This document shows positions 7,156 through 7,425 of a DNA stretch of 45,913 bases, one piece after another. Source of the DNA: Escherichia coli (lineage in GTDB: Bacteria; Pseudomonadota; Gammaproteobacteria; Enterobacterales; Enterobacteriaceae). Location: NCBI RefSeq assembly GCF_003334785.1, contig NZ_QOWV01000023.1. One strand, written 5' to 3'. Both the position numbers and the translations under genes were made by a program. The notes below the pieces were generated by a model. It saw only the letters and a program-made list of their open reading frames with translations. It was not told the DNA's origin and did no database searches. Position 1 is the stretch's first letter. Each line of letters opens with the position of its first letter.

Positions 7156-7425
7156 AATAATTCCACAATTGACGGCAACGTCACGTAATAGTTGCGCGGC
7201 GTGCTTGTGTTTCCTTAAAGTTAAAACTTTGATACAGATCTGATTATTTATGCAATATGCTGTCTGATTGCATAAATATACATTAGCTGAAGCGTGATGA
7301 TATAAACAATTTGCGTCTTTTGGCGTCGGGTTTGTTTCTTAATATGTCAAAAGATTGGCTATCGACGAACTGGCGAGGTAACGCTATGTTAACGGTGTAG
7401 CTATCAGAATACGGAAGGCGCGAAG

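Follow-up and report, generated by a model that had tools for sequence, protein, structure and literature searches.

The arginine repressor ArgR of Escherichia coli recognises a site of 39 bp composed of two 18-bp boxes (ARG boxes) separated by 2–3 bp, and it usually represses by steric exclusion at the promoter (PMC4381063). The ArgR operators of E. coli, in particular those of the artJ, artP, argG and argR type, in which a strong TTGCATAAAAATTCA-like box is paired with a weak one, are among the closest described systems to the element considered here, a palindrome in the spacer between the genes dtpD and ybgI. We analysed it in a stretch of 45,913 nucleotides from E. coli (contig NZ_QOWV01000023.1 of assembly GCF_003334785.1), called the window below and used for all coordinates; window position x corresponds to position x + 735,401 of NC_000913.3 and to position x + 734,624 of U00096.2. 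E. coli has four proton-coupled peptide permeases, of which the dtpD product is one, and losing all four impairs gut colonisation (PMC10936423). The palindrome forms part of a conserved control element of about 39 bp (7245–7284) sitting on the dtpD core promoter. Judged from its sequence, this element could be a repressor operator, with ArgR as the leading, though still tentative, candidate.

The 270-bp spacer separates dtpD (5674–7155, minus strand) from ybgI (7426–8169, plus strand), and the gene context given in a preliminary description of this DNA, with dtpD starting at 7155 and ybgI on the opposite strand, is correct. The two 9-mers named there, TTTATGCAA at 7247–7255 and TTGCATAAA at 7268–7276, are also in place. 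Their symmetry is perfect, but a 9-bp repeat with a 12-bp gap understates the structure. The true arms, TATTTATGCAAT (7245–7256) and ATTGCATAAATA (7267–7278), are 12 nt long, 100% complementary, and separated by a 10-nt gap, ATGCTGTCTG (7257–7266). The arm centres are 22 bp apart, and with three mismatches allowed the symmetry reaches 17 nt (7240–7256 and 7267–7283). Simulation of 20,000 spacers of 270 nt, matched in first-order composition, gave a probability of about 3.5 × 10−4 for a perfect 12-nt inverted repeat, compared with 0.028 for a 9-nt repeat. Perfect 12-nt inverted repeats with a gap of at most 20 nt number only three in the whole window, against 0.08 expected. The palindrome is real and non-random. 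The 42-nt stretch that carries it occurs as a single copy in E. coli; of 5426 complete genomes, 5423 have it, 5260 of them in identical form. The complete spacer is likewise found in 5423 of the 5426 and is 100% identical to many of them.

The palindrome overlaps the mapped dtpD core promoter, and its right arm is the promoter itself. The transcription start site (TSS) of dtpD was mapped by Kim et al. 2012 (PMC3415461, supplement file 2) to 741,892 of U00096.2 on the minus strand, giving a 5′ untranslated region (5′UTR) of 113 nt. This start, known from one data set, is the A at window position 7268, and the upstream 51-mer in the same list ends in ...CTAATGTATATTTATGCAA, the reverse complement of 7268–7286. 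The −10 hexamer TATATT (7275–7280, minus strand), which matches TATAAT at five of six positions, lies exactly at −12 to −7 from the mapped start and is invariant among the orthologues described below. It is preceded by TG at 7282–7281 (−14/−13) and followed by the discriminator TATGCA. The right arm holds the last four bases of the hexamer, the discriminator and the +1 A. With the TSS at 7268, the right arm runs from −10 to +2 of the promoter, and the left arm from +13 to +24 of the transcript. Earlier described as lying about 100 bp upstream of the dtpD start, the palindrome is thus not a free-standing site but lies on the −10 hexamer, the discriminator and the start of transcription. No recognisable −35 hexamer was found 16–18 bp upstream, where ATATCA (7303 to 7298) matches at three of six positions and is not conserved, and a consensus promoter scan of 7050–7500 found no full promoter. 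The dtpD promoter may rely on the TG at −14/−13 or on an activator.

Comparison across the family separates the promoter from the palindrome. The dtpD loci were taken from GTDB species representatives, and 54 dtpD–ybgI spacers from 54 Enterobacteriaceae species were aligned, with a mean column identity of 52%. Against this background, two stretches are invariant in all 54 species. The first, TATGC (7256–7260), corresponds to +13 to +9 of the dtpD mRNA and contributes the first four bases of the gap between the arms. The second is the island TGCATAAATATACA (7269–7282; −1 to −14 of the promoter), which fits the ARG-box core TGnATwwwwATnCA at every position and includes positions 7269–7278 of the right arm. 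TATGC starts 13 nt before TGCAT, and this offset is unchanging in 54 of 54 species. Among the specified half-site positions of the island there is a single change: Yokenella has TGAAT in place of TGCAT, a step towards the ARG consensus. The right arm and TATGC are the only invariant element of the spacer in the 54 species. The deeply conserved unit is the core promoter together with TATGC, not the palindrome, which in its full form is limited to part of the family.

The left arm has a more restricted history. It is 0.75–1.00 identical to that of E. coli in Citrobacter, Pseudocitrobacter, Superficieibacter, Intestinirhabdus, Kluyvera and UBA5654, genera in which the flanking 5′UTR is merely 0.26–0.66 identical, and UBA5654, an uncultured and distant lineage, has a perfect palindrome of 12 out of 12 pairs. 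Klebsiella and Raoultella differ from E. coli by a 4-nt insertion or deletion (indel), TCTGATTATTTA----ATATGCTGT versus TCTGATTATTTA[TGCA]ATATGCTGT, which shifts the arm by 4 nt and leaves seven of the 12 palindrome pairs. Species of the Pluralibacter type carry unrelated sequence at the left arm and retain 2–5 of the 12 pairs, beside an invariant right arm. Compensatory changes for left-arm substitutions were never seen across the aligned orthologues. The halves of the palindrome are therefore movable relative to each other, which argues against a single rigid dimeric operator. Conservation in orthologous promoters, proposed as a check in the preliminary description, thus holds for the right arm in all 54 species but fails for the left arm, which is displaced or lost in some clades.

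Two further observations concern the same region. In the Pluralibacter-type loci L029, L030, L031, L033, L047 and L054, a different small palindrome, TTGAGC-ATGAAA-GCTCAA, stands directly before TATGC in place of the left arm. A Dam site (GATC within AGATCT, 7237–7240) adjoins the left ARG-like box described below and is kept in Escherichia, most Citrobacter and Superficieibacter. The more distant relatives of dtpD in Hafnia, Edwardsiella, Serratia and others (loci L055–L082; 57–67% identity) proved to be its paralogue dtpC rather than orthologues. There dtpC lies directly behind a highly conserved open reading frame (ORF), probably cadA, and a GC-rich terminator hairpin, and no ARG-like core was found upstream.

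The similarity to ARG boxes was quantified with a symmetrised matrix built from the 20 boxes of ten known ArgR-controlled promoters of MG1655 (carAB, argI, argE/C, argF, artJ, artP, argA, argG, argR and argD), whose operators were aligned on their double ARG boxes with MAFFT. In leave-one-out scoring, the real E. coli boxes reached 4.6–21.4 bits and the real operators, as pair sums, 21.6–37.3 bits. The best 18-mer of the window, box B (ATTGCATAAATATACATT, 7267–7284), scores 18.7 bits and covers −16 to +2 of the dtpD promoter, so that an ARG-like box overlaps the promoter elements directly. The second best, box A* (TCTGATTATTTATGCAAT, 7239–7256), scores 17.7 bits and is the mirror of box B, 10 bp away. 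These two boxes are the palindrome arms with their flanks; they rank first and second among 45,896 window positions, and no other 18-mer exceeds 13.1 bits. The element fits the description of an ARG box as an 18-bp imperfect palindrome matching wnTGAATwwwwATTCAnw, and box B is close to the strong boxes of argG and argR (TTTGCATAAAAATTCA), artJ and artP. Among the orthologues, box B scores 7–19 bits, at least 10 in all but one, while box A* reaches 13.7–17.1 bits in Escherichia and Citrobacter, with lower scores elsewhere.

The exact core TGNATWWWWATNCA is present once in the window. Across 91 loci (about 490 kb), the exact ARG core was found in the dtpD island, in seven known ArgR operators and in only one other place; it was absent from 26 dtpC loci. 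Outside the element, the orthologous spacers contained no 18-mer of at least 13 bits in 13,662 positions. The box in canonical register with box B, ATTTATGCAATATGCTGT (7246–7263), lies 3 bp from it and resembles an ARG box just in its right half (ATATGC). Whereas the E. coli version scores −2.3 bits, those of the Klebsiella and Pluralibacter clades reach +4 to +7.8 bits. Scores in this range were found at 0.08–0.9% of background positions, with +4 bits attained at 0.2–0.9%, and are similar to those of the weak boxes of artJ, argR, argD and artP (4.6–7.0 bits).

These features suggest how ArgR might act at dtpD. Box B would serve as a near-ideal ARG box over −16 to +2, and the invariant ATATGC (7255–7260) would be the right half of its canonical-register partner 3 bp away, within a conserved block of about 39 bp (7245–7284) that covers −16 to +24. 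In the Escherichia/Citrobacter lineage, a second strong ARG-like box (7239–7256) would have produced the perfect palindrome. A repressor at this element would exclude RNA polymerase; arginine-bound hexameric ArgR would hold box B and adjacent DNA and block open-complex formation at the dtpD promoter. Plentiful arginine would then lower dipeptide uptake, just as ArgR represses the transporters artJ, artPIQM and hisJQMP. Hexameric ArgR, rather than a simple dimer, is the best candidate for the palindrome.

Several points weigh against this assignment. The strong boxes of E. coli are 10 bp apart (28 bp centre to centre) instead of 2–3 bp. The canonical partner, at −2.3 bits, lies below all 20 real boxes, and the resulting pair sum of 16.4 bits is therefore below the 21.6–37.3 bits of real operators. 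Since boxes A* and B are mirror images, their two high scores are not independent evidence, and single boxes of at least 18 bits are expected about 0.75 times per Mb of window-like sequence and 6.5 times per Mb of AT-rich sequence. The island is invariant even at the positions that ArgR does not read (n and w); part of this conservation must stem from the −10 hexamer, and part is left unaccounted for. Lineages that have the left arm often lose the TG of box A*, yet a −10-like hexamer stays. The physiological rationale for ArgR at dtpD is indirect, and a literature search that did not extend to two genome-wide ArgR target tables from chromatin immunoprecipitation (ChIP) found no publication tying ArgR to dtpD. 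We favour an ArgR operator only tentatively.

The persistence of the −10-like hexamer points to an alternative, in which the symmetry reflects two promoter modules rather than a protein dimer. The right arm would be the −10, discriminator and start of the dtpD promoter, directed leftward from 7268. The left arm would be the same module of a distal ybgI promoter, directed rightward from a start near 7250–7255, with the plus-strand −10-like hexamer GATTAT at 7242–7247. Polymerase at one of these mirrored, face-to-face sigma70 core promoters would occlude the other, causing interference between dtpD and ybgI-pxpBCA-nei. The dPeak study (PMC3798280) reported two sigma70 events in the spacer by ChIP with sequencing (ChIP-seq), at 741,859 (window 7235) and 742,036 (window 7412). 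A ybgI primer gave a primer-extension start at 742,030 and a longer, unsized product, which its authors equate with the ybgI TSS of RegulonDB at 741,874 (window 7250). The start at 7250, the ChIP-seq event at 7235 and the long product all suit a distal promoter. Moreover, plus-strand TGATTATT-TATGCA-A mirrors minus-strand TGTATATT-TATGCA-A, and a hexamer of the form xAxxAT still stands 8 nt ahead of TATGC in Citrobacter, Kluyvera (TATTAT), Superficieibacter (AATAAT) and Intestinirhabdus (AATTAT), also where the ARG-like TG has gone. The indel between the arms tolerated in Klebsiella and Raoultella also suits two separable units.

The map of Kim et al., however, has no plus-strand TSS here. GATTAT matches the −10 consensus at just four of six positions and has no clear −35, the consensus scan found nothing, and the RegulonDB start at 7250 lies merely 3 nt past the hexamer. 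RNA polymerase does not need identical discriminators, so that the 12/12 identity and the invariant TATGC would be left unaccounted for. On balance we consider face-to-face promoters rather unlikely as the source of the palindrome, though the main alternative; they are compatible with a repressor site, and the two explanations are not mutually exclusive.

The proximal ybgI promoter lies at 7359–7397. It is conserved across genera, with a −35 hexamer TCGACG (7362–7367), a 17-nt spacer and a −10 hexamer TATGTT (7385–7390), which fit the ybgI TSS at 742,021 (window 7397) reported by Kim et al. (PMC3415461). The sources disagree on this start, which lies at 7406 according to the primer extension of the dPeak study. 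A direct repeat extends over the ybgI −35, −10 and start, TATGTCAAAAGATTGGCTATC (7343–7363) and TATGTTAACGGTGTAGCTATC (7385–7405), with 71% identity between copies 42 bp apart; it could be a regulator site.

The idea put forward in the preliminary description was that a symmetric, dimeric regulator reads the palindrome as such; with the arms given here, this would be the 12-10-12 form. The dyad is perfect (12/12) and has a chance probability of about 3.5 × 10−4. It occupies a classic operator position over the −10 and the start, within the sole deeply conserved block of the spacer, and the left arm is conserved in several genera with unalignable flanks, up to the perfect palindrome of UBA5654. 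Beyond dyad symmetry, the other properties of an operator for a dimeric helix-turn-helix protein were not found: the half-site centres are 22 bp apart rather than one helical turn, and neither the left half-site nor the spacing is conserved, with the 4-nt shift in Klebsiella and Raoultella and the 2–5 pairs of the Pluralibacter clade next to an invariant right arm. Left-arm changes are never compensated, one half is the core promoter, and no known motif fits, since the CRP/CytR architecture, LexA and NsrR all fail. A dimeric regulator of this kind is therefore improbable, although the non-random dyad that suggested it stands.

The ArgR operator and the opposed promoters may also be combined into a mirror-symmetric double switch. 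The dtpD promoter and a distal ybgI-pxpBCA-nei promoter would face each other, each with a strong ARG-like box over its own −10 and start, at the 10-bp spacing of the boxes. Arginine-bound ArgR would shut both opposing units or arbitrate between them, acting possibly as two hexamers or in alternative registers, and the peptide permease, perhaps with the 5-oxoprolinase/DNA-repair operon, would join the arginine regulon. This combined scheme is speculative and has a low probability.

A still less probable explanation dispenses with a regulator. Sigma70-dependent pauses use −10-like elements in this region of a transcript, and minus-strand CATATT (7259 to 7254; +10 to +15) could be a second −10-like element, acting as a pause site or as a second dtpD −10 located 21 bp downstream, with the palindrome as a by-product. 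The invariant minus-strand hexamers TATATT (−12 to −7) and CATATT are exactly 21 bp apart and both have A at the second and T at the sixth position. A single dtpD TSS has been mapped, however, such elements are not usually invariant across a family, and neither the conserved discriminator TATGCA nor the left arm is accounted for.

The left arm might alternatively be a product of chance or history with no function of its own, such as a small duplication or insertion beside a constrained promoter. It is lineage-restricted, and the 4-nt indel between E. coli and Klebsiella creates the repeat ATGCAAT ATGCTGT. But in at least five genera the flanks have diverged far more than the arm itself, and 12 matching pairs out of 12 arise by chance with a probability of only about 3.5 × 10−4, which makes this origin highly improbable. 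Finally, a hairpin with a 12-bp stem and 10-nt loop, whether it affected the stability or attenuation of a transcript or formed a cruciform, is barely credible: each strand of an isolated 46-nt segment folds into it (−11.7 and −10.9 kcal/mol, z about −3) and a plus-strand RNA from 7250 would carry a 7-bp 5′-terminal stem, but a hairpin in the dtpD mRNA is excluded because the TSS at 7268 is inside the right arm, the isolated segment would rarely be transcribed whole, the 113-nt dtpD 5′UTR is unstructured (z = +1.3), no T-run follows the stem, a terminator scan gave a single hit at 7313–7326 and none at the palindrome, no compensatory changes occur, and an Rfam search returned no match and just sub-threshold noise (MicA, 18 bits versus a gathering score of 41).

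The preliminary description knew of no described regulator of dtpD, but one has been reported: Cra binds the dtpD promoter in an electrophoretic mobility-shift assay, and dtpD shows Cra-dependent repression (PMC8085971). The Cra consensus GCTGAAnCGnTTCA has no match with up to three mismatches in the spacer, and the reported Cra site could not be placed on the palindrome. The nearest look-alike, GCTGAAGCG (7286–7294), shows more than three mismatches to the 14-mer and lacks conservation beyond E. coli. It begins a stretch, GCTGAAGCGTGATGAT (7286–7301; −18 to −33 of the dtpD promoter), with a perfect Cra-type left half (GCTGAAnCG) and a poor right half, which is not conserved even in other Escherichia; this is a possible location of the reported binding. 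In Shigella, ybgH has been described as induced anaerobically in an FNR-dependent manner.

Other candidates were rejected individually. A predicted GalR site is labelled “dtpD 741888” in PMC5110547; the table there uses U00096.3, as seen from its gal operator coordinates, which places the site inside the dtpD coding region and not on the palindrome. For sigma54, inspection showed that the GG is missing at −24 relative to TTGCA. A small ORF starting with ATG at 7257 has nine codons, but in Klebsiella it meets a stop at the third codon. Taken together, the comparison with known sites produced a match to the ARG-box core with high matrix scores, but the CRP/CytR, LexA, NsrR and Cra patterns were unmatched.

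Elsewhere in the window, the annotated neighbours are phrB, dtpD (minus strand), ybgI, pxpB, pxpC and pxpA. Of the three perfect 12-nt inverted repeats, the other two are CTTTAAAAACTG ... CAGTTTTTAAAG (23148–23186), with a 15-nt loop, and ACACGACCAGAA ... TTCTGGTCGTGT (45088–45121), with a 10-nt loop, a few bases past a TAA triplet; the latter looks like a terminator-type hairpin, but no T-run follows it. Sequence at about 1300–2120 recurs in direct orientation at about 2570–3390, with a period of about 1.27 kb. Identical words include 39-mers (1310/2576), 18-mers (1988/3255), 14-mers (2056/3323) and CRP-like 16-mers (2099/3366), and a gene or element upstream of phrB is probably present here twice.

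The palindrome is plausibly an ordinary kind of control element for dtpD, and is put forward as a candidate. Should it be an ArgR operator, the uptake of dipeptides would be coupled to the supply of arginine; the arginine regulon would then have a further member, shared across Enterobacteriaceae, and ArgR an operator of unusual box spacing. If it consists of face-to-face promoters, dtpD and the ybgI-pxpBCA-nei operon would provide a compact and conserved example of interference between the promoters of a transporter gene and its neighbour. Under either explanation, known biology would be refined, not overturned.

Comparison with described regulatory sites places these possibilities in context. 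Cra is the sole regulator reported to bind the dtpD promoter, yet its consensus is unlike the palindrome. LexA was predicted by BPROM for a dtpD clone (PMC7606416), and TTGCATAAATATACAT fits 12 of 16 consensus positions of the LexA box (CTGT-N8-ACAG), but the essential outer C and G of the CTG/CAG ends are missing, with three mismatches in eight specified bases. LexA-type matches with two mismatches in the spacer (7205 and 7260) are of ordinary low stringency, as the window has 207 versus 166 expected. The island also resembles an NsrR site (ATGyAT-N5-ATrCAT), in that TTGCAT-AAAT-ATACAT uses the half-site words of the hmp and ytfE NsrR sites, but its central N4 is one base short and the spacer has no match with up to two mismatches. 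CytR operators are GTTGCATT repeats with flexible spacing between two CRP sites, and CytR reportedly tolerates a gap of about 10 bp; each arm matches at six of eight positions and has the full TGCAA/TTGCA core. CytR/CRP was nevertheless rejected, as no TGTGA-N6-TCACA match with up to two mismatches exists in 7156–7425 and the site is centred at +6.5 and not at −40 to −93.

Two further systems remain. The element resembles overlapping convergent promoters subject to transcriptional interference, with opposed −10/start modules 14–18 bp apart and with two sigma70 ChIP events and two ybgI-directed 5′ ends in the spacer. It differs in that the plus-strand start rests on a RegulonDB coordinate quoted in a paper and an unsized primer-extension product, and in that the identity of the modules goes beyond what RNA polymerase needs. 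From the ArgR operators of E. coli it differs in the 10-bp separation of its strong boxes and in a canonical-register box that is sub-threshold at −2.3 bits. It shares with them an 18-bp imperfect palindrome of the form TGnAT-w4-ATnCA, as seen when box B (ATTGCATAAATATACATT) is set beside argG (TTTGCATAAAAATTCAGT) and artJ (ATTGCATATAAATTCACT), the overlap with a −10 and start, a block of about 39 bp, and a target gene for amino-acid or peptide uptake.

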